DNA from: a virus | Lineage: Duplodnaviria; Heunggongvirae; Uroviricota; Caudoviricetes | Length of the DNA stretch: 64,000 bases | Virus record (IMG/VR): IMGVR_UViG_3300025659_000002 | Span: 1-64,000 of that record | Reading direction: 5' to 3' (one strand) | In this document: in pieces, positions 4,774 through 25,537 of the stretch | Numbering within the stretch: position 1 is the stretch's first letter | Layout: every line of letters starts with the position of its first letter | Program-made: the position numbers and the translations under genes | Notes under the pieces: model-generated | Seen by the model: the letters and a program-made list of their open reading frames with translations, nothing else | Database searches by the model: none | What the model was told of the DNA's origin: nothing

Positions 4774-4794
4774 GTTGCCCTTTCTATTTATTTG

Positions 4795-4865
4795 AGCAGC
4801 TAGACGGATTTGAACCGACATTCCAACCATGGCAAGGTTGTGTCCTACCATTAGACGATAGCCGC
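4795..4865 (-). tRNA. tRNA-Gly (anticodon GCC)
   Basis: GCGGCTA-TC-GTCTAATGGTAGGAC-A-CAACC-TTGCCAT-GGTTG-GAAT-GTCGG-TTCAAAT-CCGTC-TAGCTGC-T. Confidence 0.7.
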
Positions 4866-10377: not shown

Positions 10378-11292
10378 TTAGAAGTTTCCGTAGTTTACTT
10401 GGAAACATTGTAGACCTAAGTCTTTACGCCATAGACCAACTACTTGGTCTCTATCATCAAACACGCAAAATACGTTGTATTTATCTTTAACGTGTTCATC
10501 ATAAAGTTTGCGTTTAAGAATTGAATCTCTTATATTATGCTCAAACAATGGTCTCATGAACATCTTCCAATGAGGAAACGGAAGGTTTGCTTTCAAAAAC
10601 TGTCTAGTTTCTGAAAGGTATTTTTCCGATCTTCCAGATAAAAAGATTATTTGGTATCCCTGTTTGTCCATAACGTGAAGAATTTCCCCCAAAATCGCAT
10701 TGTAAGTATCGTTCTCACAAGTAGAGGCGTCATAAGGGTTACGGCCTTTAAGGAATGCCATCGTGCCGTCTAAGTCACAAATGATTGCCTTAGGTAAGCC
10801 GTCTACCAACTCAACCGTGCCTGGAGGCTCAGGATAGTCGTGAGGCTCATCTTTCTTTAGAAACCTACTGTACATATCATAAATAACTTTAGAGCCTACA
10901 TGGGCCGATCCTGTACGTAATGCGTCTCGATCAATGGCATCAAATACATCTGTAGGGAATTCTCTAACCACAACTAATACGTCGTGCTTAACTTCCCGTA
11001 AAATGTTATAGTCCGCCACTATTTTTCTAATATGCTCCTCATTTGAGCTGTGTAAGTTTGTATCATCTACGAATACTGATCTTCCGGCATCTAAGTATCT
11101 AAAGATTAAAGAGTCTCTAATTGCTTTAATTATTTTCTCATTTCCTTTAGAGTATACTCCACCATCAACCATGCTTCGTAGACTATCCCTATTTACACGT
11201 TTGTATGTATCTGGCATTTTATCCATCATATCTACGGCATACGAAGTCTTACCGCTTGCGGGTAACCCCCGTAGTATTATTACTTGTCTCAT
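10378..11292 (-). CDS. pnk: polynucleotide 5'-kinase / 3'-phosphatase (T4 Pnk-like)
   Basis: N-terminal P-loop GLPASGKTS plus C-terminal HAD motif I CDLDGTM; same two-domain architecture as T4 Pnk. Confidence 0.7.
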   Translation of the reverse strand: MRQVIILRGLPASGKTSYAVDMMDKMPDTYKRVNRDSLRSMVDGGVYSKGNEKIIKAIRDSLIFRYLDAGRSVFVDDTNLHSSNEEHIRKIVADYNILREVKHDVLVVVREFPTDVFDAIDRDALRTGSAHVGSKVIYDMYSRFLKKDEPHDYPEPPGTVELVDGLPKAIICDLDGTMAFLKGRNPYDASTCENDTYNAILGEILHVMDKQGYQIIFLSGRSEKYLSETRQFLKANLPFPHWKMFMRPLFEHNIRDSILKRKLYDEHVKDKYNVFCVFDDRDQVVGLWRKDLGLQCFQVNYGNF

Positions 11293-11316
11293 TTTGTATT
11301 TCCTTTTATTTATGGC

Positions 11317-11700
11317 TTAGTCTCTATCCCATAACTTTATAGAACTCTCCGCCGTACTCTGGGCGTGTTTGTACTCAACGTCAGAGTATTGGTATAAAGA
11401 TGCTTTCCACATATCTTTATTTCGTGCAAATTGTTCAAGATGCTCGGGAGCTATCACTTCTGTTATTGACAAACAGTTTCCAGCTGATTCACCTAACTGT
11501 GAACTATGTACGCGAGTATTTACATACAAAGTGTCAGAGTCAAAGTCTAACCAGTCGAAAGAGCGCCCCTCACCCTTTGGAATGAATTTAGTATTTTTGA
11601 GTTGGCATATCTCTAACACTGAAGGCTCATATAACCCAGGAAGCACCATTAATACTATATCGCCATCTTTCAGTGTTTTTAAAAGCTGGTTACTTTTCAT
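11317..11700 (-). CDS. hypothetical protein (127 aa)
   Basis: ORF track. Confidence 0.45.
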   Translation of the reverse strand: MKSNQLLKTLKDGDIVLMVLPGLYEPSVLEICQLKNTKFIPKGEGRSFDWLDFDSDTLYVNTRVHSSQLGESAGNCLSITEVIAPEHLEQFARNKDMWKASLYQYSDVEYKHAQSTAESSIKLWDRD

Positions 11701-12765
11701 TTATTCTCCAAACTTAATTAAGAAGTCAGGGTTAATTACTTTAAAACTAAAGCTACCATCTCTCGCTCTAATCACAATTCCCTCTCTTGGGATATCAGGA
11801 TTTAGAAGGCTTGGGCCTTTAGAAAGCTCTACTAATTCGTCTACTGTATGGTTTAACACCATCTTTGGATTAAGGACAGGTACAGTATTAAATATTCTAT
11901 CTAACCCTCGTACGCGAACTTCCCCCTCAGTTGTGTAGTCCCCAAATATAAGATTTAGAAAGCTCTCAATACTTCCAAAGCCACCATCTTGTATAGTAAA
12001 AGCGTTAAACATTTTTACTTCTGTAGCAGACAATTTGTATTTATTTTTCTGAATCCCTGGCCCCAGTAATTCTCCTTGGAAAATTACATTTATACCAAGT
12101 TTAGACATTTTCTCTTCTGCGTCAATATCTCTAGCGACTTTCCAGAAAGAATTTTTGTCATTCTCTATTAGGTCAAGCTTCCGACTGCATACTCCGAAAG
12201 GTGTTGCTTTTCGGTAGTTAGGTGCATAATAAAAGGTAGATGACGATCCATCTAATTTCTCTGTTATGTAGCACTCTGTTCCTGCCCATTCTTTTATTTC
12301 ATCTACAAGATTCTGTACACGTTCTTCATCCGTCTTAGGAATCCAGGAAGGTCTGTGGCCTTTAATCTGGCCACTTAAGCATGCTGGAATGGGTGCTTCA
12401 TATTTTACTACTTTCAAAAGTTCACTTACGTCTGTTCCCACTTCGGGGCCATCGGCGAGCTCTTCGAAAGTATCTAATGGCATGGCTAGCCCTTGACTAA
12501 TTTGCTTACGCAATTTTATAGTTCGTAAGCGATAACCTCTTGTGCCGTCATCTATTGTTTTGACACCGTTTTTCTTTAAGAATTCAAACGGCTCTATTTC
12601 TGGCAACAAAGAGTCCACTTCAAAGTAGACGCATTTATCACCTATTTGAAATTCCCCCTTCTTAACTACTAGATGCCAGCCTTTTACAGTTGCTTTTTCA
12701 ATTACATCTGCTCCAGAGATAGGCTCTAAATTAGCTATGAGTTGGATTGTTGCTAAATGTCTCAT
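11701..12765 (-). CDS. ATP-dependent RNA ligase (KxDG nucleotidyltransferase family)
   Basis: ITEKLDGSSSTFYY contains the ligase motif I K-x-D-G; 354 aa; adjacent to Pnk. Confidence 0.55.
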   Translation of the reverse strand: MRHLATIQLIANLEPISGADVIEKATVKGWHLVVKKGEFQIGDKCVYFEVDSLLPEIEPFEFLKKNGVKTIDDGTRGYRLRTIKLRKQISQGLAMPLDTFEELADGPEVGTDVSELLKVVKYEAPIPACLSGQIKGHRPSWIPKTDEERVQNLVDEIKEWAGTECYITEKLDGSSSTFYYAPNYRKATPFGVCSRKLDLIENDKNSFWKVARDIDAEEKMSKLGINVIFQGELLGPGIQKNKYKLSATEVKMFNAFTIQDGGFGSIESFLNLIFGDYTTEGEVRVRGLDRIFNTVPVLNPKMVLNHTVDELVELSKGPSLLNPDIPREGIVIRARDGSFSFKVINPDFLIKFGE

Positions 12766-12766
12766 T

Positions 12767-13288
12767 TTATAATTTCCATTCTTGTTTTAAAAAGTTTATT
12801 CTGGCTGTTATACTTTTATAATATTGCCAACCTGCTGGAGACTCCCAGCGATTGCCCGCCCTGTAGGATCTTACAGTTTTGGACCAGCTACCATTATGTC
12901 TCTCATTCTTCCAATAGGTTAGTTCAGTTATTGCTTCTCTACAACTAAGTATGTGACTATCTATGAGCCATTGGGCCACTACATTCCTATTAAAGGGTGT
13001 GTCCTCTATCTCATCTCTATGTCTACTCATATATGTGTTGATATTGATATGGTGAGCTCCTGCGGAAGGGTCTTGCAAATTTACAAGGTATTTACCTCCT
13101 GCAGATTCTTGCCACTCAATAGCAGCTAATGTCCACCCTAAATCAAAGGGCACCCCATATTCATAGGATGCCCGTATTGATTCTTGTTGATGGCTTGTTA
13201 AAGCTTTCCATTCCTCAGGTAAGGCTCCAACGCATAAACATATATTTGTGAGTAGTATTAGTAAATATCTAATCGAGCCAACTTGCAA
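12767..13288 (-). CDS. secreted protein, weak lytic-transglycosylase-like motif
   Basis: N-terminal hydrophobic signal-like segment; AAIEWQESAGG resembles an Slt catalytic ES motif (weak). Confidence 0.3.
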   Translation of the reverse strand: MQVGSIRYLLILLTNICLCVGALPEEWKALTSHQQESIRASYEYGVPFDLGWTLAAIEWQESAGGKYLVNLQDPSAGAHHININTYMSRHRDEIEDTPFNRNVVAQWLIDSHILSCREAITELTYWKNERHNGSWSKTVRSYRAGNRWESPAGWQYYKSITARINFLKQEWKL

Positions 13289-13469
13289 TTGCAGCTATAC
13301 CGCCTACAGCTAAAAATAATAAGACGAAGCCAAGCCACAGCGGGGCAGTTATCCACCACCAACTCCATGTAATGACTCCAACTAACTTTAGGACAAGTAA
13401 TACTATAAATAGTATGAATCCGGGATTTTTCATTTTTTCTCCGTTTGTTTTGGTTTTAAATATTTCCAA
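13269..13469 (-). CDS. small membrane protein (66 aa)
   Basis: ORF track; two hydrophobic helices. Confidence 0.4.
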   Translation of the reverse strand: MEIFKTKTNGEKMKNPGFILFIVLLVLKLVGVITWSWWWITAPLWLGFVLLFLAVGGIAAIASWLD

Positions 13470-14503
13470 ATTAAGGGCTTTATGTTTTTCCCTTGTAACA
13501 TTGTAAATACTAAAGAAATTATTTGTTTATTTCCAATATTTATGACTTTTTCTGCTACTGCTTTGGAAGTTCGTTTTTTCATATCAATTGATTCTGGGAA
13601 ACTAGTTATAAGGTGCATGTATTGTTTACAAGCAGTGTTTGCTAATATCACATAATTCTCTCTAAAGTTATCTATAGAGGTATGAAGCCATTTATAGTAT
13701 TCATCTGGTACAATATCAATTAACTCTTGTATATCTAATTCTGGATCTGATAAGTATTTCCATACCGTTTTATCATTGCAAAGCTGCAATATACGGTGAT
13801 GTCTTACATACCAGTCAAATTTTACTTTAACTCTGAACCCGTTATCATATGCTAACACAAATCCTTCTTTGTTTTCTTGATTTGGTACATTATATAACTC
13901 ACTTACATCGCAATCATGTTCATATAGCTCTGTTCTTGGTATACAAGTAGTAACAGCGTGCAACCCTATCTCTCTGCCAGTAAACGTATCGCGTACTGCC
14001 AATAGCCTTAGGTCGCTCTCTGGGTAGGTGATACAGGTCATCCCCCCTTTCTTAAGAGTAGGTGTTAAGAACTCATAGCAGTATGTGAAGTCCTCCCTTA
14101 TAGTAAGGTCAGGGTATTTTTCTTCTAAGACTACATTGGCCTCTGTAATATATTCATTATCAAAAGAGCCTCTTGTAGATTTAATTAAATGCCCCCTCCA
14201 CATAACCATTATAAATAGACATCCGTCTAGTTTATTAAAAATGCTGTAGTGGTCATCTGGGAGCTCGATACCTAGTCCTTCTAATTCTGTATAGTTGAAA
14301 AATTTTCTAAAAGGGTTGGCTACTACAGTTCCATATTCATCTAGTATAAGACCCCTACATCTAGTAGTGGTATCGTTCCAATTTCGAGCATACTGTGTGG
14401 CATGGGTATAATTATATATCCAAAGTGGAAACTCTGGATGTTTTCTTCGCTTTACCCACCCTTCCTTTATTTGGGTTTCTAAAACTGTTAGGACTGTATT
14501 CAT
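13430..14503 (-). CDS. second KxDG nucleotidyltransferase (RNA ligase 2-like)
   Basis: FNKLDGCLFIM motif I; 357 aa; a second ligase paralog as in the T4 rnlA/rnlB arrangement. Confidence 0.5.
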   Translation of the reverse strand: MNTVLTVLETQIKEGWVKRRKHPEFPLWIYNYTHATQYARNWNDTTTRCRGLILDEYGTVVANPFRKFFNYTELEGLGIELPDDHYSIFNKLDGCLFIMVMWRGHLIKSTRGSFDNEYITEANVVLEEKYPDLTIREDFTYCYEFLTPTLKKGGMTCITYPESDLRLLAVRDTFTGREIGLHAVTTCIPRTELYEHDCDVSELYNVPNQENKEGFVLAYDNGFRVKVKFDWYVRHHRILQLCNDKTVWKYLSDPELDIQELIDIVPDEYYKWLHTSIDNFRENYVILANTACKQYMHLITSFPESIDMKKRTSKAVAEKVINIGNKQIISLVFTMLQGKNIKPLIWKYLKPKQTEKK

Positions 14504-14506
14504 TAT

Positions 14507-15523
14507 TTACCTTTTTGTTTTAAAGCCTATATTATGAGAAGAAATTGCTACTTCAGACGTAGCTACCTCTTGCCTTAGTTTATTAATTCTGTCTATTGAT
14601 ACTTTATAATCTGTATCTAACATTATGACGCTTACTATGAGTTCTTTAATATGTGCGAAAGACCAGTTATTAGTATCTTTTACCCAAGTATTTAATTCTT
14701 TACCCTTTAAACTACTCTTTAATTGTAAATATTTTTTACGAGTAATTTCATCTGGGTAATCCTGGTGCATAACCCTGTCAAACCTCGAAGGTCTATTTTT
14801 TAAAGATGTAGGAAGCCGTTCTGGATAAGCAGTTGTAGCTAAAAATACAACATTATTTATTACTCCTATTCCATCTAGTAAATCCAGAATCTTTGCTTCA
14901 GCTACTGGATCCATTATAATTCTGTCAATGTCTTCAATTATAACAAGTATGGGCCTATTCCCCTCAATATCTCTTATTCTAGTAATACCTTCTGATACTA
15001 CAAAAGAGCTATCAAATACTAAATATCCTTTTTGAATACAATTTGACATTACTATTTTCATTGTACTATTTTTTCCTGAGCCGTCTCCACCATAAATTAG
15101 AATTCCTCTTTTATGGCTTTCTCCCCAAGCTTTATAAGCTGATCCAAGTTTCCAAAATTTTCCTAATTCTAATAATATTTCTTCAGCTATTGAATTACTA
15201 AATAAAATTAGGTCCGAGGCTTCTAGCTCAATATTTAAGAACTCTACGGCGGCTCCTCTAGATTCTAATACTTCATAATACCCTGCTGGTAAAATTTTTA
15301 CAAAAGCTGAAGCTGGTAAAAAAGTTCCTTGTTCATTGGTTAAATATCCAGAGGTTACGTTTTCAAGATTTAGGTTTTTATCTTCGGGGAGTAGGGCGCT
15401 ATTCTGGCTATCTTCGGATAAAAAAGTTTCAGGTTCACTATTATTATATAATTCTGAACTTGTAATCTCTTTTTTCCTAAATTTATCAATTTGTTTTTTA
15501 TCTACTTCTATTTTGCTAGTCAT
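14507..15523 (-). CDS. AAA-type ATPase
   Basis: Walker A ILIYGGDGSGKNST, Walker B PILVIIEDIDR. Confidence 0.55.
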   Translation of the reverse strand: MTSKIEVDKKQIDKFRKKEITSSELYNNSEPETFLSEDSQNSALLPEDKNLNLENVTSGYLTNEQGTFLPASAFVKILPAGYYEVLESRGAAVEFLNIELEASDLILFSNSIAEEILLELGKFWKLGSAYKAWGESHKRGILIYGGDGSGKNSTMKIVMSNCIQKGYLVFDSSFVVSEGITRIRDIEGNRPILVIIEDIDRIIMDPVAEAKILDLLDGIGVINNVVFLATTAYPERLPTSLKNRPSRFDRVMHQDYPDEITRKKYLQLKSSLKGKELNTWVKDTNNWSFAHIKELIVSVIMLDTDYKVSIDRINKLRQEVATSEVAISSHNIGFKTKR

Positions 15524-15537
15524 AAATCTCCATAAAG

Positions 15538-15566
15538 AAAAACGGGGCCGAAACCCCGTTTATATA
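15538..15566 (-). terminator. rho-independent terminator candidate
   Basis: AAACGGGGTTTCGGCCCCGTTT hairpin followed by TTCTTT on the minus strand, between the 15567..16418 stop and the 14507..15523 start. Confidence 0.5.
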
Positions 15567-16418
15567 TTAATATCTAGTTGTACACGCTGGACAACATATC
15601 CAGGTAGACTTTTTTCGTCTAAGTCCACATTTTTGGCAATAACGTTTCTCTAAATCATTTACCGTAATAGGTTTTAATGACATAGGTAATAATTTATAGG
15701 TTACTACATGAGAGGGAGTATGCTCAAATTTTTGATAGCTTCTTCCGAACTTTTGTTCTGAATGACTACCTTGTTTAATTCTACCCGTCTCTTTCATAGG
15801 CGCGCTTGCAAAGCATGCGGTTGTAAGTACTTCGCCACTATCTTCTATCATACCCATAGCCATTTGAGGCTCTGCTGGATTTGAGCATCTTGTGCCCCTA
15901 GCGCTATACATACTTGGCGCTGACATGCCGCTAATTCCCGTGAATTCGCCAGCAAGGTCGGTCCACCAAGTATTATCGTTGGTTAGTATATCACCTTCCC
16001 ATGTAAACGGTCTTGGGTAGACATTAGGATTAGTGTATGGGCTACAGTATTTATGCTCGATAGGAAATGACTCTCGATAAAACTCTATCTCTAGTAATCC
16101 GTTCTCGGCTATAGCTTTGTCTATTTCCTCAGTATCTTCTACGTTATATGTTGAAAATTCAAACTTTCGATCTACTTCGATATGTCGTTCCAGAAAATAA
16201 TGCTGTCCAGGGTCAAGCACAAGCCCGCCATTGGAAATATATTTTCCATTAAGTTTTATCCTCAATTTACAGGAAGAAGTTTCTAAGTTAGTAAGTTCGA
16301 TTTCAAATTCGTCTTTATCATTTAAGTAATAAGTTGCTTCTATGCCATTCCAGACATCTAATTGGCTATATACTTTTAAACGATTCTTTTGAATTGTAAG
16401 GTTGGTTTTTATATTCAT
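15567..16418 (-). CDS. hypothetical protein with C-terminal zinc ribbon
   Basis: 283 aa; C-terminal CQKCG...CCPAC. Confidence 0.45.
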   Translation of the reverse strand: MNIKTNLTIQKNRLKVYSQLDVWNGIEATYYLNDKDEFEIELTNLETSSCKLRIKLNGKYISNGGLVLDPGQHYFLERHIEVDRKFEFSTYNVEDTEEIDKAIAENGLLEIEFYRESFPIEHKYCSPYTNPNVYPRPFTWEGDILTNDNTWWTDLAGEFTGISGMSAPSMYSARGTRCSNPAEPQMAMGMIEDSGEVLTTACFASAPMKETGRIKQGSHSEQKFGRSYQKFEHTPSHVVTYKLLPMSLKPITVNDLEKRYCQKCGLRRKKSTWICCPACTTRY

Positions 16419-16554
16419 TATTGTTACCTTGTGTTTACGTCAAATTTGTGTGGAATTGCCACACTCAAATGCCACATATTTAATATGACACTCTGATACA
16501 ATTATCAGGTCTCTTAAATATAACTATTATTTTTAATATAACCAACTATTATAT

Positions 16555-16836
16555 TTATAGCGTAAGCATGTCTCCATGCCCACTATCTAGTTTGATACTA
16601 GTGCACCCTGCGTTGGGCATACCAAAATCGTCTAGTGGTTCAAATCCGTCGTATTCTCCGCAAATATATCCGGTGTAATATAATATATCATCATCGTCAT
16701 ACATTTCGAATTTTCTGCCGAATTCTGTAATTTCTTCTTCGGAATATACAGCCCCTCCTGGGCCTAATGTTCCTAATTCATCTTTTAAACTTTCAAGATG
16801 GCTTTCGGTTATAATCCAAGCATAAGCTCTACTCAT
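16555..16836 (-). CDS. hypothetical acidic protein (93 aa)
   Basis: ORF track. Confidence 0.45.
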   Translation of the reverse strand: MSRAYAWIITESHLESLKDELGTLGPGGAVYSEEEITEFGRKFEMYDDDDILYYTGYICGEYDGFEPLDDFGMPNAGCTSIKLDSGHGDMLTL

Positions 16837-16849
16837 AGTAGTTTATTGG

Positions 16850-17206
16850 TTAATTAAATAAATATCTCGGTATTATTATTAAGATAGCTGTAATTACCCA
16901 AAGAATCCCAGTACCCATAAATCCGGCTAACATACTTATTAACGCAGTTCCAAAAGTTATTATTATTAGTTCTTTAGAAGTGCAAAAATTTTCAGTAAAT
17001 TTTAACATCTCTGTTGACTTGGTATTTATATCTATAGCAGAAGAATCGTCCGTCGTCGCTAACTTTACTATATGTATAATAACTAATGTTATTAACGCTA
17101 TAGTAGTTAAAGTTATGAAAAAGAATATTAGTCCCTCTATGTGAAGTAAGAACATTATTGCAGGTATTAGTAGTAATAATGTCTTCTTATATTTCATATT
17201 AATCAT
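16850..17206 (-). CDS. membrane protein (118 aa, 3 TM)
   Basis: ORF track; hydrophobic helices. Confidence 0.45.
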   Translation of the reverse strand: MINMKYKKTLLLLIPAIMFLLHIEGLIFFFITLTTIALITLVIIHIVKLATTDDSSAIDINTKSTEMLKFTENFCTSKELIIITFGTALISMLAGFMGTGILWVITAILIIIPRYLFN

Positions 17207-17552
17207 CTTCTGTTTCCTTTTGTTTTTGTTTTTGTACTAGTTTACATACAGCTTCGTATTTTTTAGGCTCTTCTTTAGCCTCACTATAGTTACTATAAAC
17301 TCTTTCCATTTCTTCTTTTATTTCTTGTGCAGTTTGAATGTTGTTGAGAATTTTAATAGGGCCGTCATGCTCAATTCGAATTGAACCGATACAAGGTTCA
17401 CCCCAACCTTCATCCATATGTTCTTGATCTAGTTCAGCTAATTTTTCACTTTCCATTAATTGTGGATAAGCACTTCCATCCCCACCGTTTTGTACACTGT
17501 ACCATATTTTAGTTATCATTATTGTTTTTTTTTGATTTAGTTTAGTTGACAT
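17199..17552 (-). CDS. hypothetical protein (117 aa)
   Basis: ORF track. Confidence 0.45.
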   Translation of the reverse strand: MSTKLNQKKTIMITKIWYSVQNGGDGSAYPQLMESEKLAELDQEHMDEGWGEPCIGSIRIEHDGPIKILNNIQTAQEIKEEMERVYSNYSEAKEEPKKYEAVCKLVQKQKQKETEDD

Positions 17553-17841
17553 GCTCTCTAGTATTTAGAATAGCTTTTACATGTTTAACGAAGGCTTCCC
17601 AATCATCACTTAACTTCTTTAAAGCCTTAGCTTCTTCATCTGTTACATTTTTATAACTCGATGTAACAACTCCATCCTTGTCTTCATACCATAGAACTTC
17701 GCATCTGAATTCGCAACAGTAAAACATACAAGTTTTTCGTAGCTTATTTCGAATCGATTTATAGTAAGATAGTAGGCGTTTAGTATTCAATTTGTGCAGC
17801 TGTTTATCAGTCAGTATATTAATTTCGTCTTGTAATTCCAT
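17542..17841 (-). CDS. hypothetical protein (99 aa), Cys-containing
   Basis: ORF track. Confidence 0.45.
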   Translation of the reverse strand: MELQDEINILTDKQLHKLNTKRLLSYYKSIRNKLRKTCMFYCCEFRCEVLWYEDKDGVVTSSYKNVTDEEAKALKKLSDDWEAFVKHVKAILNTREHVN

Positions 17842-17860
17842 AGGTTTCCTTTTTTGATTG

Positions 17861-17933
17861 CTGTAACGACGAGACTCGAACTCGCAACCACTGCATTAAC
17901 AGTGCAGCGCTCCACCAATTGAGCTACGTTACA
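17861..17933 (-). tRNA. tRNA-Asn (anticodon GTT)
   Basis: TGTAACG-TA-GCTCAATTGGTGGAGC-G-CTGCA-CTGTTAA-TGCAG-TGGTT-GCGAG-TTCGAGT-CTCGT-CGTTACA-G; all stems pair. Confidence 0.7.
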
Positions 17934-17944
17934 GATTTAATTTA

Positions 17945-18196: not shown

Positions 18197-18425
18197 TTTA
18201 TCTTTTATTGGTTGATTTTGCTAAATAAGCCTCTTCATCTTCTTTCCAGTTTCCTGTAAGCTCTGGATAAATTTCAAAAAACATTCCTGAATTTAATAGT
18301 TTATCATAACCTTCTCGAAGATTATCCATTAACTCTTCATATCTTTTGGCAACAGCGTCATCTACTGTATGCTCATGATTATAAACAATTATTTTTTTTC
18401 ATTTGGTTCCTTTTTAATGGGGGCG

Positions 18426-18496
18426 TGAAGGCGGTAGGAATCGAACCTACGTCGGCGGCTTAAAGGGCCGCTGCTAAACCACTCAGCTACGCCTCC
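18426..18496 (-). tRNA. tRNA-Lys (anticodon TTT)
   Basis: GGAGGCG-TA-GCTGAGTGGTTTAGCA-GCGGC-CCTTTAA-GCCGC-CGAC-GTAGG-TTCGATT-CCTAC-CGCCTTC-A. Confidence 0.7.
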
Positions 18497-18582
18497 ACAG
18501 TTTTTATATTATGAGTGTTAATATTAATAGTAGTGCTACAAAATGTAGGAACTGGTCAAAACCTATAGTATTAAACATAAAC

Positions 18583-18897
18583 CTAATTTTGTTTAAAGCA
18601 AATGCTTTTTTTTACTATTCTACTAGTAACAGCGTCTATCCATAAATGTGACATAAATAATAAAGACCAGCATAGCGCTGCATTTCCTAATGAAATAGTT
18701 ATTATTGTGCCAAGAGAGGGCGCTAGCATTATAAACGCCGTCAATACAGTGGCATATACTACACAATGTAAAATTAGAATGCCCCAGTGTTCATGTTTTT
18801 TTGAAGCCATTTCCTGTGTTTGAAACAAGAAATCTGCTACCCAATGAACTAGCAATACAACTAGTATTATGTGAACTGTAAATGTTGTAGTTAACAT
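18583..18897 (-). CDS. membrane protein (104 aa)
   Basis: ORF track; multiple TM helices. Confidence 0.45.
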   Translation of the reverse strand: MLTTTFTVHIILVVLLVHWVADFLFQTQEMASKKHEHWGILILHCVVYATVLTAFIMLAPSLGTIITISLGNAALCWSLLFMSHLWIDAVTSRIVKKSICFKQN

Positions 18898-19076
18898 TAG
18901 CAGCCTTTATAGTGGGAATCGTAACGTTCTATAAACGCGGCTAACCACCCTGCTAATAAAAGGCAGCCCGCTATCGTAATAGGAGTACTAGGTAGTATAA
19001 TTCCTCCAGCTATTACAAATACTCCTGTCAAGAAGTTCAGTAGTAATCTTAATGCTCCGAAAAATTTAAAATTCAT
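18897..19076 (-). CDS. small membrane protein (start trimmed to MNFKFFG)
   Basis: ORF track 18897..19178; the upstream part overlaps tRNA-Cys. Confidence 0.35.
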   Translation of the reverse strand: MNFKFFGALRLLLNFLTGVFVIAGGIILPSTPITIAGCLLLAGWLAAFIERYDSHYKGC

Positions 19077-19124
19077 TTTGTGTTCCTTATTATTTTTATT
19101 AATTAAAATACTTATCGTAAGTAT

Positions 19125-19201
19125 TGAGGGATGAGTCGGATTCGAACCGACACAGTCCAGGGTTGCAGCCTGTCGCATTAACCAATTTTGCTTACCATCC
19201 C
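19125..19201 (-). tRNA. tRNA-Cys (anticodon GCA)
   Basis: GGGATGG...CAGG-CTGCAAC-CCTG...GTCGG-TTCGAAT-CCGAC-TCATCCC-T. Confidence 0.65.
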
Positions 19202-19278
19202 TAATTTTTTATCTAAAAAGAAAGAGGGCGGATATTGCACCGCTCTCTTTCTAATCTTTTAAATGTGGCTTCTAGTAT

Positions 19279-20238
19279 CTATTCAAACAATACTTTTAAG
19301 ACACCATTTCTGCTGGTCATCATTATGTTGGTCGACGGTGTTACCGCTTTCTCCAACGTTTCCAACGATTTCACAAAATTATAAAAGTCTGGATCTGCGC
19401 CATAAGCTTCTGCGTAGATCTTGGTAGCTGTTGCATCAGCTGTACCTTTAATCATCTCAGACTCATTATAAGCCTCAGACATTAGATTTTTTATTTTGTT
19501 ATTTCGTCTTCCAGCTAATTCCTGTCTCTCTTTCTGCCCCTGGGCGCGATATTTCTGAGCAATTCGTGACTGCTCTGAAACCATTCTATCCTGTATCTTT
19601 TTCTTGACTACATTGGTAAAATTTACCCGTTTCAGCTGAACGTCTATAATTTCGATTCCTAATTTACGTTCGGCTAGTTTTGATTGAGCCATTGCCAGGA
19701 TTTTAGCCACAATTTCGTCTCGGATTCCTGGTTGCATGAAGCTGGACTCGGTGCCCTGATCTTCAGTATTTGTATCTGAGGTTTCCTGCGAACGTAACAC
19801 CATCTCCCGATTACTAGACCGTACAATTTGAGACATTACATGCTCAGCAATTATGTCACGTGAGCTACCATCTATTACATCATCAATTCGAGATTGTGCC
19901 TGGTTTTCACGACCACCTACAGCTTTATGATATTCCTGAGGATCACTAATTCTCCATCTGGCAAATACATCAATAAAGACATATTTATTATCTTTTGTAG
20001 GTAATTCTTCGGCATCCCCATCCCATTCCAGAATACGTTTGTCATAAACATGCTTATTCTGAATGTAAGGAATCTTCAGGTGAACCCCTGCGTCAGTAAT
20101 CGCTTCGCCGCGAATTTTACCAAACTGAGTAATCACCACTTGTTCTTTTTCATCGATAACGTATAAACCGCTAAAGAATCCAAAAAGCAGGAACATAAAG
20201 AGGAATATGAAAGCCCCTTTTTTAACTGTCAATTCCAT
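19279..20238 (-). CDS. hflC: HflC-like SPFH/band-7 membrane protein
   Basis: N-terminal TM helix then YVIDEKEQVVITQFGK...; SPFH domain; coiled-coil C-terminus; partner gene directly upstream. Confidence 0.65.
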   Translation of the reverse strand: MELTVKKGAFIFLFMFLLFGFFSGLYVIDEKEQVVITQFGKIRGEAITDAGVHLKIPYIQNKHVYDKRILEWDGDAEELPTKDNKYVFIDVFARWRISDPQEYHKAVGGRENQAQSRIDDVIDGSSRDIIAEHVMSQIVRSSNREMVLRSQETSDTNTEDQGTESSFMQPGIRDEIVAKILAMAQSKLAERKLGIEIIDVQLKRVNFTNVVKKKIQDRMVSEQSRIAQKYRAQGQKERQELAGRRNNKIKNLMSEAYNESEMIKGTADATATKIYAEAYGADPDFYNFVKSLETLEKAVTPSTNIMMTSRNGVLKVLFE

Positions 20239-20240
20239 AA

Positions 20241-21164
20241 CTAGTTGCCTCCCAAATTAAAGTGTGGTAGTGCTGAAATGTTTTCATCAATAAACCAAAC
20301 GTTTTCTGCTGTCGGTAGAATTTTCTGCATTGTTTCAAAATATAAACGGTCCTTAGTTACCTTAGGATTTACTTTATACTCATTATATACTGCAGTAAAC
20401 CAAGCTGTGTTACCTTTAGCTTCGTTAACTCTTTCGATAGCATAACCATTTGCTTCCTCAACCAGTCTTGCCGCTTCACCTTCAGTTTCTGTTACCTGCT
20501 TGGTGTAGTCTTCCCTGGCCTCATTAATAGTAGTCTCCTGCGTTTGCTCAGCAGAATTTACTTCTTTAAAGGCAGCCTGAACTAGCGGAGGTGGATCAAC
20601 AGTTTTCAACTGAACCAACTCTACGATAATGCCGCATTCATATAATGTTAGCATATCCTGCAGGTGAGTCTTGGCCGTATTGGCTATAGCTACACGATCT
20701 TTTTGTAATACTTCATAGAAGGAGCGATCCCCTACCATTAAACGCATTACACTTTCCGAACCGTCTCGCAAGAGCTCTTCAGGGTTTCTAGTGGCAAACA
20801 AATACTGATAAGGATCATTAATCTTATATTGTACAACCCATTGTAGGTACACAATATTTAAATCCCCTGTCAGCATTTCTGATTCTTCGACGAATCCGCT
20901 TTTGTTGTAGTTGGTATTTTTACCAGCAGATACAGTTCTAAATCCAAATTCGGCTTTATATTCATACTCAGTTCTCACTTTGTATGCTTCATCAATCCCG
21001 AACGGAATCTTAAATTGTAGTCCTCCAACAGCGGTAGTACTATTGTACTTCCCCAAACGGAGCACGACTGCTTGTTCATTAGCGTCTAGCGTGTATGCAG
21101 CTGAGAATGTACCCCAGAGCACTACAACGACTATAGCTATTAAAATGCCTAGCGCTTTGTTCAT
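20241..21164 (-). CDS. hflK: HflK-like SPFH/band-7 membrane protein
   Basis: N-terminal TM then YTLDANEQAVVLRLGKY; SPFH domain; E/Q-rich coiled coil. Confidence 0.65.
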   Translation of the reverse strand: MNKALGILIAIVVVVLWGTFSAAYTLDANEQAVVLRLGKYNSTTAVGGLQFKIPFGIDEAYKVRTEYEYKAEFGFRTVSAGKNTNYNKSGFVEESEMLTGDLNIVYLQWVVQYKINDPYQYLFATRNPEELLRDGSESVMRLMVGDRSFYEVLQKDRVAIANTAKTHLQDMLTLYECGIIVELVQLKTVDPPPLVQAAFKEVNSAEQTQETTINEAREDYTKQVTETEGEAARLVEEANGYAIERVNEAKGNTAWFTAVYNEYKVNPKVTKDRLYFETMQKILPTAENVWFIDENISALPHFNLGGN

Positions 21165-21167
21165 GCG

Positions 21168-21359
21168 TTATCCTTTTTCTTTTGTTATGGCGTCTTTGAG
21201 GCTAGCGATTTGTTCTTTCAGGCGGTTGCCTAATTGTAAATCCCCTAGTTCTCTTGTTAATTTATTTACTTTACGAACCTCTTTTGGTACTAAAGCATAA
21301 TATAACATTATGACTATCAGTAGTCCAATAATCCCTCGTAAAAATAGTAATCCGAACAT
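21168..21359 (-). CDS. small single-pass membrane protein (63 aa) upstream of hflK
   Basis: ORF track; one TM helix plus coiled-coil tail. Confidence 0.4.
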   Translation of the reverse strand: MFGLLFLRGIIGLLIVIMLYYALVPKEVRKVNKLTRELGDLQLGNRLKEQIASLKDAITKEKG

Positions 21360-21367
21360 GTATGTTA

Positions 21368-21895
21368 CTACTCCTTATCTAAATATCCCGGAAGGTTATA
21401 AGTCTTTATTAATTTTAGAAACGCTTCCAAATTACCCATAGCGTCATCGATAGAGCTATGTGTATGAGGAGTATCTCTCAGGTGTTTGAAGTTTTCAAAA
21501 GGAGTTTGAACCAACCCTTTAAAAAGACTTCCTAGGTTTGCACTTGAGTGCCCAAAGGGATTTATCCCTAAGTACTTATGACAGTAATAATTTATGAACT
21601 GCCAATCATGCCCATTGTTATCAGATATAAACATCGGCCTTCCTTTTGAAGTTTCTTTTACAAACTCTGCTAAAGTTTTTATAGCTTCTTCAGGATCTCC
21701 GTATCCAAGAGTTTCTTCCCTAGTTACCCCTATCTTTTCTAAAGCTTCAGGTTTCCATAGGTTAGTAATAGGCCTTAGGCGCTCGTGGACGGACTCGTCC
21801 TTCGCTTCCGTGACCCTTATTGCTGCAAACTCTACCATAGAGAATATTCCAGGGCATTCCCCGTCAGACTCTATGTCTATCATGAAATAACTCAT
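21368..21895 (-). CDS. DEDD-family 3'-5' exonuclease (DnaQ/oligoribonuclease-like)
   Basis: Exo I MIDIESDGE, Exo II FISDNNGHDWQF, Exo III HSSIDDAMGN. Confidence 0.6.
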   Translation of the reverse strand: MSYFMIDIESDGECPGIFSMVEFAAIRVTEAKDESVHERLRPITNLWKPEALEKIGVTREETLGYGDPEEAIKTLAEFVKETSKGRPMFISDNNGHDWQFINYYCHKYLGINPFGHSSANLGSLFKGLVQTPFENFKHLRDTPHTHSSIDDAMGNLEAFLKLIKTYNLPGYLDKE

Positions 21896-21901
21896 ACTAC
21901 A

Positions 21902-22198
21902 CTACTCCTTGTATTTTAACGTGTCTACTTCGTCTGGAATCCACCAATCGTAGTAATATTCATTATCAAACTGAACGTGATTGACCCACAAGTTGTACTC
22001 GCGTGCAGCCATCTCCGAACTGTTTTCCATTTTATGATGAACTAGGTCTCTAGATATCCATATACTGGCAAATAAACAGAATACTGCTATTAACTCCCAA
22101 TATATAGCTTCTGTTTTCCATCTTGGTAATCCAATTGCTTGAAAATACCACGGTACTAAAAAACATATAACTAGAAATCCTACTATCCATGATAACAT
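21902..22198 (-). CDS. membrane protein (98 aa)
   Basis: ORF track; 2-3 TM helices. Confidence 0.45.
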   Translation of the reverse strand: MLSWIVGFLVICFLVPWYFQAIGLPRWKTEAIYWELIAVFCLFASIWISRDLVHHKMENSSEMAAREYNLWVNHVQFDNEYYYDWWIPDEVDTLKYKE

Positions 22199-22219
22199 CT
22201 TAACCTCCTTCCATTTTTC

Positions 22220-22456
22220 TTAATTCTTTAAAGCTTCGCCTTTAATTATTTGTTCTATAATCATTCCAGAATATTCTTCATCCTGATTTACAACCCAATA
22301 ATTAGGTGCTGCTTCTCTTCCTGTTTTCTCTCTATATTTTTGTATTTTTATTATTATTGCCTGCAGAACTAAGCGTTCATCAGGCTCTAGACCTTTGTCA
22401 ATATCTTCAGTTTTCAGTATTAGGAATAAGTTGTCTTTTATGTTTACTGTACTCAT
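22220..22456 (-). CDS. hypothetical protein (78 aa)
   Basis: ORF track. Confidence 0.4.
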   Translation of the reverse strand: MSTVNIKDNLFLILKTEDIDKGLEPDERLVLQAIIIKIQKYREKTGREAAPNYWVVNQDEEYSGMIIEQIIKGEALKN

Positions 22457-22477
22457 CGGTCTAGATGGTTAGTTGTT

Positions 22478-22675
22478 TTATGCTTCTGCCTCTATTCCTG
22501 AGCTGGCAGTTGCTCGTTCGATACTAATTGTATCTATTGCTTCTCCGTCGTCTAAAGCTATAGCAGCCCTTACTAACGACTCAAGTTCGTACATGGTTAC
22601 CGGTAAACAGGCTCCCAATCGATCTTCTTGATTTTTATGATGCACTACTTTTAATAAGTTTTGCATTAACTTCAT
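22478..22675 (-). CDS. hypothetical protein (65 aa)
   Basis: ORF track. Confidence 0.35.
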   Translation of the reverse strand: MKLMQNLLKVVHHKNQEDRLGACLPVTMYELESLVRAAIALDDGEAIDTISIERATASSGIEAEA

Positions 22676-22697
22676 GTTATCTCCTTTTTCTTATACC

Positions 22698-22949
22698 TTA
22701 TTTATTGTTATATTTTTGGCGTTCGCTGTTAGCTAATGCCGAGTATCTACTGGCATAATCCATTGAAAGTTTTTCAGATACGAAACTAGCCATATTTAAA
22801 TGTTGAGAAAAGGAAACCATCTCTTCTCCAGGAGTAAACCAGAAAACTCTAACTTCTAAGATACCGTCTGCATTTTTTCTAAGAGAAAGCTCTACTCTAT
22901 CTGCCTTTGTAAGTTTAAGAATTTGTTGAAGAGGCTTTATGTCGTTCAT
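22698..22949 (-). CDS. hypothetical protein (83 aa)
   Basis: ORF track. Confidence 0.4.
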   Translation of the reverse strand: MNDIKPLQQILKLTKADRVELSLRKNADGILEVRVFWFTPGEEMVSFSQHLNMASFVSEKLSMDYASRYSALANSERQKYNNK

Positions 22950-23296
22950 AATTTTACATCTCTCAGGTTTTGTCGTAAGATATCTCCTAAAACTACAACA
23001 TAGTAAATAGTAGTATCCTCAAATAATATTTTAGTGTTTATCCACTTGCGAGTTACATAACTAGAGGCATCTTCTTTATAAGTAGCATAAGATACCCCCA
23101 TGTAGAACATCACCTCATCGAACTCTACCGGGATAGTGCCGGGTTCTAACTTCATAAGGACTTCTCCACATTTAGGGAGAAATTCTACCTTATATTCTAA
23201 GATTTCACCTTTTACTATTTTTCTTAATATTTCAGCATTAGTATAGATCATTAGGGTTTTGTTCATTCGTTTTACAAAAGTCATTGGGGTGCTCAT
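22946..23296 (-). CDS. hypothetical protein (116 aa)
   Basis: ORF track; 4-nt overlap with the upstream gene. Confidence 0.45.
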   Translation of the reverse strand: MSTPMTFVKRMNKTLMIYTNAEILRKIVKGEILEYKVEFLPKCGEVLMKLEPGTIPVEFDEVMFYMGVSYATYKEDASSYVTRKWINTKILFEDTTIYYVVVLGDILRQNLRDVKL

Positions 23297-23541
23297 TCGG
23301 AACGGATCCCTCCCATTTTGAAAAAGTCTACATTACTTAACCCGGTAAATTTGAAAGAATCTCTGTCTTTTTTCGAGTATTTATCGCAGACATAATGTTC
23401 CATTTCATCAACAAACTGGTTAAAATCCATTTTGTTGAAATAGTTTATAGTATCAATAGCTTCTTTTAATTCGTGAAAGTTATGTTTTATTTTTCTTATT
23501 GCACACCCGCCTTTAGTTGTGCGAACTATTTCAGTATTCAT
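23293..23541 (-). CDS. hypothetical protein (82 aa)
   Basis: ORF track. Confidence 0.4.
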   Translation of the reverse strand: MNTEIVRTTKGGCAIRKIKHNFHELKEAIDTINYFNKMDFNQFVDEMEHYVCDKYSKKDRDSFKFTGLSNVDFFKMGGIRSE

Positions 23542-23839
23542 GAGTTCTCCCCTTTTGCTTATTATATGGTTCTTTCAAGTAAAAAAAATCACCTAATTCT
23601 GAACATTTTCCTTTTTCTGATTCGGTATAGCAGCATGTCCTATGATATTTATGTTTTTGATATTTCGTATGACACACACATTCACAGCTTTCCCATTTTT
23701 CTTTTGGTTCTGGTATCTTATCCACCAACCATACCACGAAAGGAGTTTCCCAATAAAAATTACCAGATTCTCCGGCTTCATATTGAGCTCTTACATTTTC
23801 CTCTCTCAAATACTGTTCCATTAGTTTTGTTAATTTCAT
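23531..23839 (-). CDS. Cys/His-rich metal-binding protein (102 aa)
   Basis: CECVCHTKYQKHKYHRTCCY cluster. Confidence 0.45.
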   Translation of the reverse strand: MKLTKLMEQYLREENVRAQYEAGESGNFYWETPFVVWLVDKIPEPKEKWESCECVCHTKYQKHKYHRTCCYTESEKGKCSELGDFFYLKEPYNKQKGRTHEY

Positions 23840-24096
23840 TCTTTCTCCTTCGGCTTAATAGACTCAGCAAGCCTCTTGCCTAGATCTGTAGCGCATCTAA
23901 CTATGTCGTTAGCCATAATATCTAAATACTGTTGAGTATAATTCTCAGGAATATTAAAACAGAATGATTCGTCCTCTTCGTTAACAAAGGATATTGTACC
24001 TTCATATCTATCATGTCGTTTATGTTCTTTCTTTTCCCAACCATATCCTTGTTTAAACCTGATACTTATATTATCAAGTTTCCAATTATTTTCCAT
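23836..24096 (-). CDS. hypothetical protein (86 aa)
   Basis: ORF track. Confidence 0.4.
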   Translation of the reverse strand: MENNWKLDNISIRFKQGYGWEKKEHKRHDRYEGTISFVNEEDESFCFNIPENYTQQYLDIMANDIVRCATDLGKRLAESIKPKEKE

Positions 24097-24109
24097 TATT
24101 TCTCCTTAT

Positions 24110-24295
24110 TTAGGGTTTAATAGCAACATACAAATCTAAGGCTTTATATATTATTTCGCCTTCTTGTAAATTCGCCCTCACCTTTTCTTCAATATTGCCC
24201 CACTCCATAAGATTTTTATAATTGTATCTTTTGTCATGAAAGAAATTAATACTTTTTAGCAAATCTTTTTCAATCTGTGTTAAATCATTTTTCAT
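24110..24295 (-). CDS. hypothetical protein (61 aa)
   Basis: ORF track. Confidence 0.35.
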   Translation of the reverse strand: MKNDLTQIEKDLLKSINFFHDKRYNYKNLMEWGNIEEKVRANLQEGEIIYKALDLYVAIKP

Positions 24296-24478
24296 TTAGT
24301 CTCCTCCAGTTTCTCTGGTATACTGTTCATATAGGCAATCTAATTCACCTGCTGAAAACTCACAATCTAACTGAGTTGTCGGTCCATAATGACTTAGATG
24401 CCCTTCTTCTATTAACCATTCTATGAAGTCTTCCATTGTTGTTAGGTCCCCTTGATAAAATATGTTTCTTTGTGCCAA
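24296..24478 (-). CDS. hypothetical acidic protein (60 aa)
   Basis: ORF track. Confidence 0.35.
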   Translation of the reverse strand: MAQRNIFYQGDLTTMEDFIEWLIEEGHLSHYGPTTQLDCEFSAGELDCLYEQYTRETGGD

Positions 24479-24681
24479 TATGGGCTTTCTTTTACAACAC
24501 TTCGATTTTTTTGTTTCTTAAAACATTTTTCACATACCCTGTGCTTTTTTGTAGCCATTCCAAAAGTCCAATAGATCCAGCTATGCCAGCAAAACCACTT
24601 TTTTCGTTGCTTAGTATGTAAAATTAGGTCGAGCTCTTCTCTAGTTAGTCTGTAACTTGTTGGGGTGAAATCAATTACCAT
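24442..24681 (-). CDS. small zinc-finger protein (79 aa)
   Basis: CWHSW...HRVCEKCFKK. Confidence 0.4.
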   Translation of the reverse strand: MVIDFTPTSYRLTREELDLILHTKQRKKWFCWHSWIYWTFGMATKKHRVCEKCFKKQKNRSVVKESPYWHKETYFIKGT

Positions 24682-24817
24682 ACTATGCTCCTTTATAATA
24701 GTTTTTCATCTGTTTATCCATTTTCTGTAGGGTCGTGTATAATTATTGAGTTTCCTTCACTCTTTGTTTCAACTACCATTCCTACACTTAATTCTAATTT
24801 CATTTCTTTTTCACTCC

Positions 24818-25537
24818 TTAATTATTTTCTATTAAATATACATGTTTTTCAATGTAATCTTTACCCCTAGCTGAGGCAAACACTGGGATATTCATATCTG
24901 GGTGGTTATTGTCTATACAGTACCCTTGTCGTCTTAAACTAGAGAAGTCATCAAAATTAATTCCTATCTTTTTGGATAGAAGATGTTTTATATTCTCAAC
25001 ACTTCTCATGTGAAGTTCTTTCTGAGAGAAATGCTCTCTTCCTACCATCTGGACAGCGTTGCGTATAGCATCTTGTTGTCTCCAGATATAATAGTTTGTC
25101 ACTTCATCTTTTGCCAAATTAAAAGCTCTAGCATCAAACTGCACTTTTTCGCCAGTTATTGAATAAAAGTTAGTGCTTACGATAGCTGCTGTAATTGATA
25201 CTATTTTCTGTATGGAATTATTGAACCACGACTGTGTGTTATGAGTTTTATAATCCGTTAATAAAAAACTGATCTCATCAGATTGACCATAGCAAAACTT
25301 TGTTGACTGCATATCTTCCATAGAAGCCCTAGCAGTTTCCATCATATTTGCAGAGAATCCGGTAGACCATCCTCTTCCATATAATTTTCTTGTAAGAGTG
25401 TGAAACGCTCTACCGTCTACTCTTATTATTACTGGCATTCTTTTGTGAAGCTTGTATTTATAGGTAGCTTCATAATCTTTCATACGATCACCTAGTGGGG
25501 TTCCGTCTCCCATATTATTTAGTCTCCTCTTTTTCAT
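24818..25537 (-). CDS. Thg1-like 3'-5' nucleotidyltransferase (tRNA-His guanylyltransferase family)
   Basis: PVIIRVDGRAFHTLT (RxDGRxF motif) and YGQSDEISFLL (catalytic SDE); 239 aa. Confidence 0.65.
   Translation of the reverse strand: MKKRRLNNMGDGTPLGDRMKDYEATYKYKLHKRMPVIIRVDGRAFHTLTRKLYGRGWSTGFSANMMETARASMEDMQSTKFCYGQSDEISFLLTDYKTHNTQSWFNNSIQKIVSITAAIVSTNFYSITGEKVQFDARAFNLAKDEVTNYYIWRQQDAIRNAVQMVGREHFSQKELHMRSVENIKHLLSKKIGINFDDFSSLRRQGYCIDNNHPDMNIPVFASARGKDYIEKHVYLIENN

Follow-up and report, generated by a model that had tools for sequence, protein, structure and literature searches.

A dispersed set of predicted RNA end-repair genes interleaved with the tRNA genes of an uncultured marine jumbo phage

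Four predicted repair enzymes and their source

The window analysed here is the stretch of 64,000 nucleotides at positions 1 to 64,000 of IMG/VR virus record IMGVR_UViG_3300025659_000002, which derives from an uncultured marine jumbo phage of approximately 210 kb. A single block of co-oriented minus-strand genes with negative GC skew extends from about 1 kb to 28.7 kb of the window and forms a long run of accessory genes. Within this block, a preliminary description of the sequence had pointed to a complete tool kit for RNA end repair at positions 10378-25537, comprising a polynucleotide kinase, two ligases with a KxDG motif and a Thg1-like polymerase, next to a tRNA cluster. The open reading frame (ORF) list contained the four genes as described, all on the minus strand and with ATG starts, and the motifs GLPASGKT, DLDGT, KLDGSS, KLDGCL, RVDGRAF and GQSDE were present. 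Profile searches, chosen beforehand as the test of the description, supported all four family assignments, those of the Thg1-like protein and the ligases included. The tRNA genes are indeed close, three of them inside the 15 kb span and eight more 5-9 kb downstream.

10378..11292, minus strand: T4-type bifunctional polynucleotide 5'-kinase/3'-phosphatase (Pnkp), 304 amino acids; PF25109, PF13671, phrog_505, 4xrp, 1ltq
11701..12765, minus strand: ligase A, Rnl5-family (DraRnl/NgrRnl type) ATP-dependent RNA ligase, 354 amino acids; PF21189, PF09414, TIGR02306, 5cot
13430..14503, minus strand: ligase B, distant Rnl1-family RNA ligase, 357 amino acids; PF09511, phrog_562, 2c5u
24818..25537, minus strand: bacterial-type Thg1-like protein (TLP), 3'-5' nucleotidyltransferase family, 239 amino acids; PF04446, phrog_4717, 4kgk

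Pnkp matched the full HAD_PNKP profile PF25109 (3e-42; 144.6 bits, cutoff 27.6), PF13671 (4.6e-10) and, end to end, phrog_505 'polynucleotide kinase' (2.6e-74). Its best solved structures, both aligned over the full length, were Capnocytophaga Pnkp1 (4xrp, 7.5e-42) and T4 Pnkp (1ltq, 3.5e-27). The two-domain organisation is shared with T4, but the window protein is nearer to the bacterial Capnocytophaga Pnkp1 than to T4 Pnkp. The P-loop GLPASGKT starts at residue 9 (K15/T16) and the kinase motif NRDSLR gives D36/R39, residues which align with T4 K15/S16 and D35/R38, and the HAD nucleophile motif DLDGT is found at 173 (D173-x-D175-x-T177). Judged by its sequence, 10378-11292 encodes a T4-type Pnkp with all catalytic motifs in place and predicted activity. 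In public records the protein is annotated as 'AAA family ATPase'.

Ligase A combines PF21189 (the PHA02142 OB module; residues 4-97, 2.2e-35) with PF09414 RNA_ligase (164-344, 2.8e-18) and passed the NCBIfam equivalog TIGR02306 of the DRB0094/DraRnl type with 198.1 bits (cutoff 151.15), the family after which it is named in public annotation ('RNA ligase (TIGR02306 family)'). The alignment with Naegleria NgrRnl (5cot, 6.5e-68) covered residues 2-351, and the motif I lysine K170 in KLDGSS occupies the same position as the adenylylated lysine of NgrRnl. Ligase A matches DraRnl and NgrRnl in its OB and nucleotidyltransferase architecture, in length and in the position of K170, and differs from them in being phage-encoded and placed between Pnkp and the Rnl1-like ligase. 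Rnl5 homologues were detected in 340 of the 50,697 phage records of INPHARED, the collection to which all counts of phage records below refer. Those Rnl5 enzymes that have been characterised act on duplexes with RNA as the 3'-OH strand, in which they seal 3'-OH/5'-PO4 nicks (PMC4408790, PMC1807946, PMC7261155), and by analogy ligase A is predicted to be a sealer of duplex nicks.

Ligase B exceeded the cutoff of PF09511 (45.2 bits, cutoff 28.3), matched phrog_562 (1.8e-52) and was aligned with T4 Rnl1 (2c5u, 1e-14) motif by motif. As in T4, motifs I, III, IV and V are kept: K91 (I, KLDGCL), E144 (III), E213/G214 (IV) and K226/K228 (V), as well as R50 and RKFFN in the N-terminal part, aligned with T4 residues K99, E159, E227/G228, K240/K242, R54 and K75/F77. 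The score against the NCBIfam equivalog TIGR02308 was 71.9 bits, below the cutoff of 242.25, and the two scores place ligase B in the Rnl1 family but not as an equivalog of T4 RnlA. Towards the C-terminus, where T4 RnlA has its tRNA-specificity domain, the TIGR02308 alignment extended to residue 339 of 357, and the pairwise alignment with the T4 structure ended at 285. By analogy with the T4 enzyme, ligase B is a candidate sealer of anticodon-loop breaks. Rnl1-like ligases were found in 1675 phage records; the public annotation of ligase B is 'hypothetical'. The preliminary description was right in naming two KxDG ligases, both of which are confirmed by family, but the two are not redundant loop sealers, since A is of the Rnl5 duplex-nick type and only B is Rnl1-like.

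The TLP was recovered by PF04446 (81.6 bits, cutoff 29.2; 6.1e-23) and phrog_4717 (8e-68). Among the solved structures, the Bacillus thuringiensis TLP (BtTLP, 4kgk) gave 4.9e-43 over residues 15-214, an archaeal TLP (5axk) 2.3e-11 and Thg1 approximately 1e-5. RVDGRAF is located at residue 39 and GQSDE at 84, and the catalytic residues D41, D87 and E88 were invariant in an alignment with 25 metagenomic homologues. Where true Thg1 has HINNLYN, the window protein has AIRNAVQ. This replacement, together with the far closer match to BtTLP than to Thg1, marks the protein as a TLP of bacterial type, distinct from tRNA-His guanylyltransferase proper. The palm domain of the Thg1 family and its three catalytic carboxylates are present, but the protein is not a true Thg1. 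The Asp/Asp/Glu catalytic residues and the TLP-type sequence at the HINNLYN site are shared with BtTLP, from which the window protein differs in being phage-encoded. Bacterial and archaeal TLPs carry out template-dependent nucleotide addition to 5'-truncated tRNAs in the 3'-5' direction (PMC4820378, PMC3701042). In public gene calls the TLP starts at Met9 (231 amino acids, ending at 25513), and at JGI it is annotated as 'tRNA(His) guanylyltransferase'.

TLP homologues were present in 164 phage records, from phages of Bacillus, Prevotella, Caulobacter, Mycobacterium and Erwinia and from other large phages, most of which bear the annotation tRNA-His guanylyltransferase already. In IMG/VR, at least 592 contigs encode a TLP. 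A Thg1-family enzyme is accordingly uncommon in phages, as had been proposed, but it is not new there, and a role in 5'-end restoration as part of phage RNA-repair sets was proposed in 2010 and 2021.

Megablast of the 15 kb span against the phage records gave zero DNA-level matches. At NCBI, the window's proteins form part of a metagenome-assembled genome (MAG) named 'Candidatus Scalindua sp.' (locus tags HOG49_...), in which a protein identical to the window TLP is recorded as the 'hypothetical protein' MBT6050810.1. The same genes occur on phage-like contigs from many metagenomes, and at least 47 metagenomic contigs carry the window TLP, the longest of 211,738 bp and some from marine samples. 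Based on the phage content of the sequence (PHROG matches, tRNA arrays and orphan genes), the 'Candidatus Scalindua' assignment is probably a binning artefact by which the phage was placed in a bacterial MAG; apart from this MAG, metagenomes are the sole source of the phage. Neither the Rnl1-like ligase nor Pnkp, each used alone as query, found relatives in IMG/VR.

The tRNA genes, further repair-type genes and gene neighbourhoods

ARAGORN detected 12 tRNA genes in the window, of which Rfam confirmed 11 and to which it added a thirteenth. The 12 ARAGORN genes were as follows.

1523..4865, minus strand: eight tRNA genes, for Tyr, Pro, Glu, Ala, Asp, an odd one, Gly(TCC) and Gly(GCC); ARAGORN
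17860-17933, minus strand: tRNA-Asn(GTT); ARAGORN, Rfam RF00005
18425-18496, minus strand: tRNA-Lys(TTT); ARAGORN, Rfam RF00005
19126-19201, minus strand: tRNA-Cys(GCA); ARAGORN, Rfam RF00005
57260-57332: tRNA-Trp(CCA), with an ordinary U11-G24 pair

The Asn, Lys and Cys genes within the span scored 52-69 bits against RF00005, and seven of the eight genes of the 1523-4865 cluster were supported by Rfam. The odd gene of this cluster (3602-3674, minus strand) was given a 6-nt anticodon loop and a two-base anticodon 'cc' by ARAGORN, has acceptor mismatches at pairs 4 and 5 and reached merely 38 bits in Rfam. The gene missed by ARAGORN (33590-33661, minus strand; Rfam 58.7 bits) sits between divergent gene blocks. 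Its 5' acceptor strand is one nucleotide short (AUA-AUG versus CAUUUAU), and the anticodon loop AUAUUAA yields the unusual anticodon AUU. A search of IMG/VR with its anticodon arm returned chance matches only.

In all 12 ARAGORN genes the discriminator is followed by a single C and then by sequence other than CCA (C74 encoded, C75-A76 not), so post-transcriptional completion is needed. No CCA-adding enzyme was found among the window ORFs tested. Among 20 further ORFs at 30-63 kb, Pfam detected no CCA-adding enzyme, RtcB, PTH or 2H phosphoesterase; a weak HD domain and a SNF2 helicase were the only matches. The first three acceptor-stem positions form proper pairs in each of the 12 standard tRNAs, which led to the rejection of the idea that the TLP corrects 5' acceptor mismatches in tRNAs of the phage. 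Supply of G-1 to a phage tRNA-His was rejected as well, since tRNA-His is absent from the window and G-1 is genome-encoded in two of three related loci.

Several further genes of the minus-strand block belong to families of RNA or nucleotide processing or lie among the repair genes. Two of them, RlaP and the metallophosphoesterase, were detected by searching the families found next to TLPs in other viruses back against the window.

1031..1492, minus strand: NADAR-domain protein (ADP-ribose processing); PF08719, 105.9 bits, 3.3e-30
1614..2321, minus strand: calcineurin-like metallophosphoesterase with one in-frame TAG; PF00149, 9.1e-12 with the joined translation
4867..5544, minus strand: RlaP (RNA-ligase-associated Pol-beta nucleotidyltransferase); PF10127, 78.5 bits (cutoff 23), 8.2e-22
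11317..11700, minus strand: orf127, an orphan ORF of 127 amino acids that follows the Rnl5 stop and precedes the Pnkp start; no family match
12767-13288, minus strand: orf173, with few homologues and by eye lytic-transglycosylase-like
21368..21895, minus strand: DEDD (RNase T-like) 3'-5' exonuclease; PF00929, 8.5e-8; phrog_192, 6.7e-10

RlaP lies beyond the 15 kb span, abuts tRNA-Gly(GCC) and has as homologues the genes most often found beside TLPs elsewhere among viral contigs. The metallophosphoesterase is, by family, a candidate 2',3'-cyclic phosphodiesterase/phosphatase. Its TAG, at 2136-2138 just ahead of the GNHD motif, corresponds to an F in the uninterrupted homologue of a related phage, L082. 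TAG ends at least six other genes here and is thus an ordinary stop codon in this phage; standing in place of an aromatic codon, it is most simply a nonsense variant. Judging from the sequence, the copy is probably inactivated or a variant, and read-through may occur. The NADAR protein is possibly accessory to NAD-linked nucleic-acid repair or counter-defence. The DEDD exonuclease, 47% identical to its L082 homologue, may serve in the trimming of RNA ends or may act on DNA instead.

The small orf127 had zero matches in Pfam, PHROG, NCBIfam and PADLOC, and its single-sequence AlphaFold 2 model was unusable (predicted local distance difference test, pLDDT, of 46). The motifs AIEWQES and SYNAG, recognised by eye behind a hydrophobic N-terminus, are lytic-transglycosylase-like, and orf173 was rejected as a repair component.

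With RlaP, the metallophosphoesterase and the NADAR protein located beyond the span, and no CCA-adding enzyme among the ORFs tested, the span does not hold a 'complete' kit. Nor is it one repair operon, for SPFH, AAA, soluble lytic transglycosylase (SLT)-like and orphan genes are also inside. A promoter and terminator scan gave signal at the level of shuffled sequence and no operon signal.

The surroundings of TLP genes elsewhere were sampled in 80 other IMG/VR TLP contigs by clustering every ORF located no more than 10 kb from the TLP. The commonest neighbours were RlaP (14 loci), PhoH (13), a calcineurin-type metallophosphoesterase (9) and the peptidyl-tRNA hydrolase PTH2 (7). With the window's own locus counted, tRNA genes occurred within 10 kb of the TLP in 23 of 81 loci, 13 of these with six or more, and 58 of the 81 had none. 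Phage TLPs thus keep company with RNA- and tRNA-rescue genes. Pnkp, Rnl5 and Rnl1 were found within the same distance in 2, 2 and 0 of the 80 loci by tblastn at 1e-5, a search in which distant homologues would be missed. The conserved association of TLPs is therefore with RNA/tRNA-rescue genes generally and not with the heal-and-seal trio specifically. Among the tRNAs next to TLPs in the IMG/VR loci L003-L081, three had the anticodon CUA (ARAGORN 'Pyl') and one had UCA ('SeC'); they may be suppressor tRNAs belonging to recoded phages.

In the related phage L082 (210,263 bp) the neighbourhood is shared, with protein identities of 28-58%. Its Rnl1 and Pnkp genes are adjacent, and a second, stand-alone HAD_PNKP phosphatase is located at the place of the window's Rnl5-orf127-Pnkp. 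An NAD synthase, a DEDD exonuclease, the SPFH pair and homologues of orf283 and orf173 are also present in L082, and no orf127 homologue was found in this genome, from which Rnl5 is missing too. The comparison shows that the pairing of Rnl1 and Pnkp is ancestral in the lineage, and that Rnl5 and orf127 are variable additions.

Other genes of the window

Two tandem SPFH/Band-7 proteins at 19279-21164 (minus strand; PF01145, 3.5e-28 and 6.3e-23) are placed between the tRNA genes and the exonuclease, and the pair is kept in L082. Just upstream of the AAA and Rnl1 genes lies orf283 (15567-16418, minus strand), which belongs to a family with 1443 cluster representatives at E <= 1e-3. An invariant C-terminal zinc ribbon (CxxC...CxxC) and a conserved N-terminal domain characterise this family. 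The zinc ribbon alone was recognisable, the N-terminal domain having no match in Pfam or among PDB profiles.

Directly downstream of Pnkp, a module of four genes (6069-10323, minus strand) encodes orf287, orf254, a PP2C phosphatase and a kinase-like protein of 563 amino acids. The same order was found right after the TLP in two of the sampled loci, L052 (11233-14156) and L036 (16900-19846), and the module is also present in L082 (11080-15708). The motifs IIDPQNSF, WPPHC and SHCV make orf287 nicotinamidase/isochorismatase-like, with PDB nicotinamidase matches at E 0.0095-0.013; its single-sequence AlphaFold model was unusable (pLDDT 37). A MIDAS motif resembling that of von Willebrand factor A (vWA) domains and a weak PF10138 match were noted in orf254. 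The genes at 6069-9429 were examined as a TerY-P triad (vWA, PP2C and Ser/Thr kinase). PP2C_2 scored 49.4 (cutoff 24), Pkinase 21.1 (below the cutoff of 31.7) and the vWA-TerF-like match had an E value of 0.12; with no PADLOC match, the triad was rejected and the likeness is architectural only.

Beyond the minus-strand block, a plus-strand gene block at 34002-38496 is interrupted by in-frame TGA codons only, located at 34422, 35277, 35903, 36080, 37039, 37276, 37492 and 38050. Joined across them, the ORFs span approximately 564, 225 and 729 codons and end in TAA or TAG. Three metagenomic homologues (609-645 amino acids) run uninterrupted across two of the TGAs and have W, Y and Y at the second. 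In two internal repeat units a TGA falls in the same register (alignment score 69 versus 23.6 +/- 4.7 for shuffles). From these alignments, TGA appears to be read as sense, probably as Trp, in the late plus-strand genes, a reading reported for other stop-codon-recoded phages. TAA is the usual end of the minus-strand early genes. No tRNA with a UCA anticodon was found in the window, and tblastn of the read-through proteins against the phage records gave no match.

A probable role in RNA repair

Family membership, intact catalytic motifs, co-orientation and the neighbourhood statistics are direct observations, and the family assignments make a role in RNA and tRNA repair the natural inference. 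The genes probably represent a dispersed RNA end-repair set, interleaved with the tRNA genes of the phage, that would mend RNAs cut by host ribonucleases, the substrates and the order of steps being inferred. The course of repair may be depicted as follows. Host ribonucleases would cut tRNAs or other translation RNAs during infection and leave 2',3'-cyclic-phosphate and 5'-OH ends, which Pnkp, perhaps with the metallophosphoesterase, would convert into 3'-OH and 5'-phosphate. The Rnl1-like ligase would then reseal breaks in single-stranded loops, as the T4 Pnkp/Rnl1 pathway does against PrrC, and the Rnl5 ligase would reseal nicks within base-paired stems. RlaP may restore a nucleotide lost at the 3' end before ligation. 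The TLP would rebuild a shortened 5' acceptor strand by activating the 5'-phosphate and adding nucleotides in the 3'-5' direction with the 3' strand as template. Polynucleotide kinase has been predicted as the supplier of the 5'-phosphate substrate for Thg1-family enzymes (PMC2904730). The double-stranded acceptor stem of tRNA is nicked by retron Eco2 at a distance of 6-7 nucleotides from the CCA end, and the targets of PARIS are anticodon stems (both in PMC12916289). The stem nicking by Eco2 provides a concrete form of damage and a rationale for a second, nick-sealing ligase. In keeping with this role, the repair genes share the minus strand, where 11 tRNA genes are dispersed among them. The RNA- and tRNA-rescue genes around other phage TLPs and the adjacency of Rnl1 and Pnkp, the classic heal-and-seal pair, in L082 speak for it as well.

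A number of points weigh against a concerted repair set of this kind. No anti-phage defence nuclease is known to act specifically by shortening the 5' ends of tRNAs. A distance of 10 kb, occupied by the SPFH genes, the exonuclease and about 20 small orphan genes, separates the TLP from the ligases, and the ligase cluster itself includes an AAA ATPase and the SLT-like orf173, neither with a visible RNA role. The low counts of Pnkp, Rnl5 and Rnl1 near other TLPs and the stop codon that interrupts the metallophosphoesterase belong here as well. Ligase B falls far under the TIGR02308 equivalog cutoff, and its substrate preference may therefore differ from that of T4 Rnl1. The searched literature holds annotations and predictions only for phage TLPs, with no functional data for these or for any other repair protein of the window. 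Lastly, the cuts made by Eco2 are near the 3' side (PMC12916289).

The enzymes might instead serve the phage's own tRNA supply, in maturation or quality control and not in counter-defence. The TLP, RlaP and exonuclease would then fix mis-processed 5' ends or restore G-1 on tRNA-His, and the ligases and Pnkp would rescue tRNAs broken in processing. At least 13 phage tRNA genes lack CCA, completion being needed in 12 of 12 ARAGORN genes; RlaP abuts a tRNA gene; 23 of the 81 TLP loci are accompanied by tRNA clusters; and the 5' acceptor strand of the tRNA-like gene at 33590-33661 has lost one nucleotide. TLPs are also known to carry out tRNA 5'-editing in amoebal mitochondria. However, none of the 12 standard tRNAs, paired as they are at positions 1-3, needs 5' editing, there is no tRNA-His in the window and G-1 is encoded, as in bacteria, in two of three related loci. 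Furthermore, the 58 TLP loci without a tRNA gene within 10 kb do not fit, and Pnkp together with an ATP-dependent ligase points to breaks made by metal-independent RNases and not to normal maturation. A dedicated service to the phage tRNAs is therefore considered unlikely, though worth keeping in mind.

It is decidedly improbable, too, that there is no pathway at all and that the genes are accessories acquired independently in a hypervariable early region, every one serving a purpose of its own. The Rnl1 homologue might in that case be a T4-like tail-fibre attachment factor, as the T4 name 'tail fiber attachment catalyst' of its PHROG recalls, the TLP might act on non-tRNA RNA, and Pnkp and Rnl5 on nicked DNA/RNA hybrids in replication. 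Gene content does differ from L082: Rnl5 and orf127 are missing there, and of Pnkp only a phosphatase remains at that site, with a duplicate in another place. The TLP is seldom near Pnkp or ligases in other phages, and the absence of operon signal above shuffled sequence fits as well. Yet a single strand carries at least six families of RNA-end processing within 25 kb, next to tRNA genes. Around TLPs in unrelated phages these families are found again, and Rnl1 and Pnkp are adjacent in L082. A further reading takes up the apparent use of TGA as sense, the tRNAs without encoded CCA and at least one tRNA-like gene whose 5' acceptor strand is defective. It is very doubtful that, as this reading has it, the phage's own tRNAs are the main substrates of the TLP and RlaP, with the TLP carrying out 5'-end editing or repair of the kind so far found in amoebal mitochondria; if true, this would be the first virus using reverse polymerisation to build a private, recoding-competent tRNA pool.

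The mending of host-cut RNAs, the preferred role, has precedents, and the gene set is a fresh example of a phage kit already catalogued by comparative genomics. Neighbourhoods of Thg1, PNK and RNA ligase and a caudovirus Thg1 were described by Anantharaman et al. 2010 (PMC2904730). Iyer et al. 2021 treated Thg1 as a sporadic 5'-end restorer in the RNA-repair repertoires of jumbo phages and listed RlaP, PNK-HAD, Rnl families, NADAR/Macro and tRNA arrays beside it (PMC7824862). The parts list of these repertoires is the same as that of the window, metallophosphoesterases included. The window differs in its permutation of Rnl1, Rnl5, Pnkp, RlaP and TLP in one 25 kb stretch and in coming from a phage that is uncultured, marine and free of DNA-level matches in INPHARED. 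Relative to the Pnkp and Rnl1 of T4, the window's Rnl1 is distant, its second ligase is an Rnl5 and not a T4-type Rnl2, and TLP and RlaP, both missing from T4, are added.

The conserved and abundant marine TLP, with thousands of metagenomic relatives, offers a concrete protein for testing. If the set acts in the way outlined, phages would mend stem nicks and lost 5' ends beyond anticodon-loop cuts, which would blunt tRNA-targeting defences such as PrrC, RloC, PARIS, retrons, Cas12a3 and Schlafen-like enzymes.

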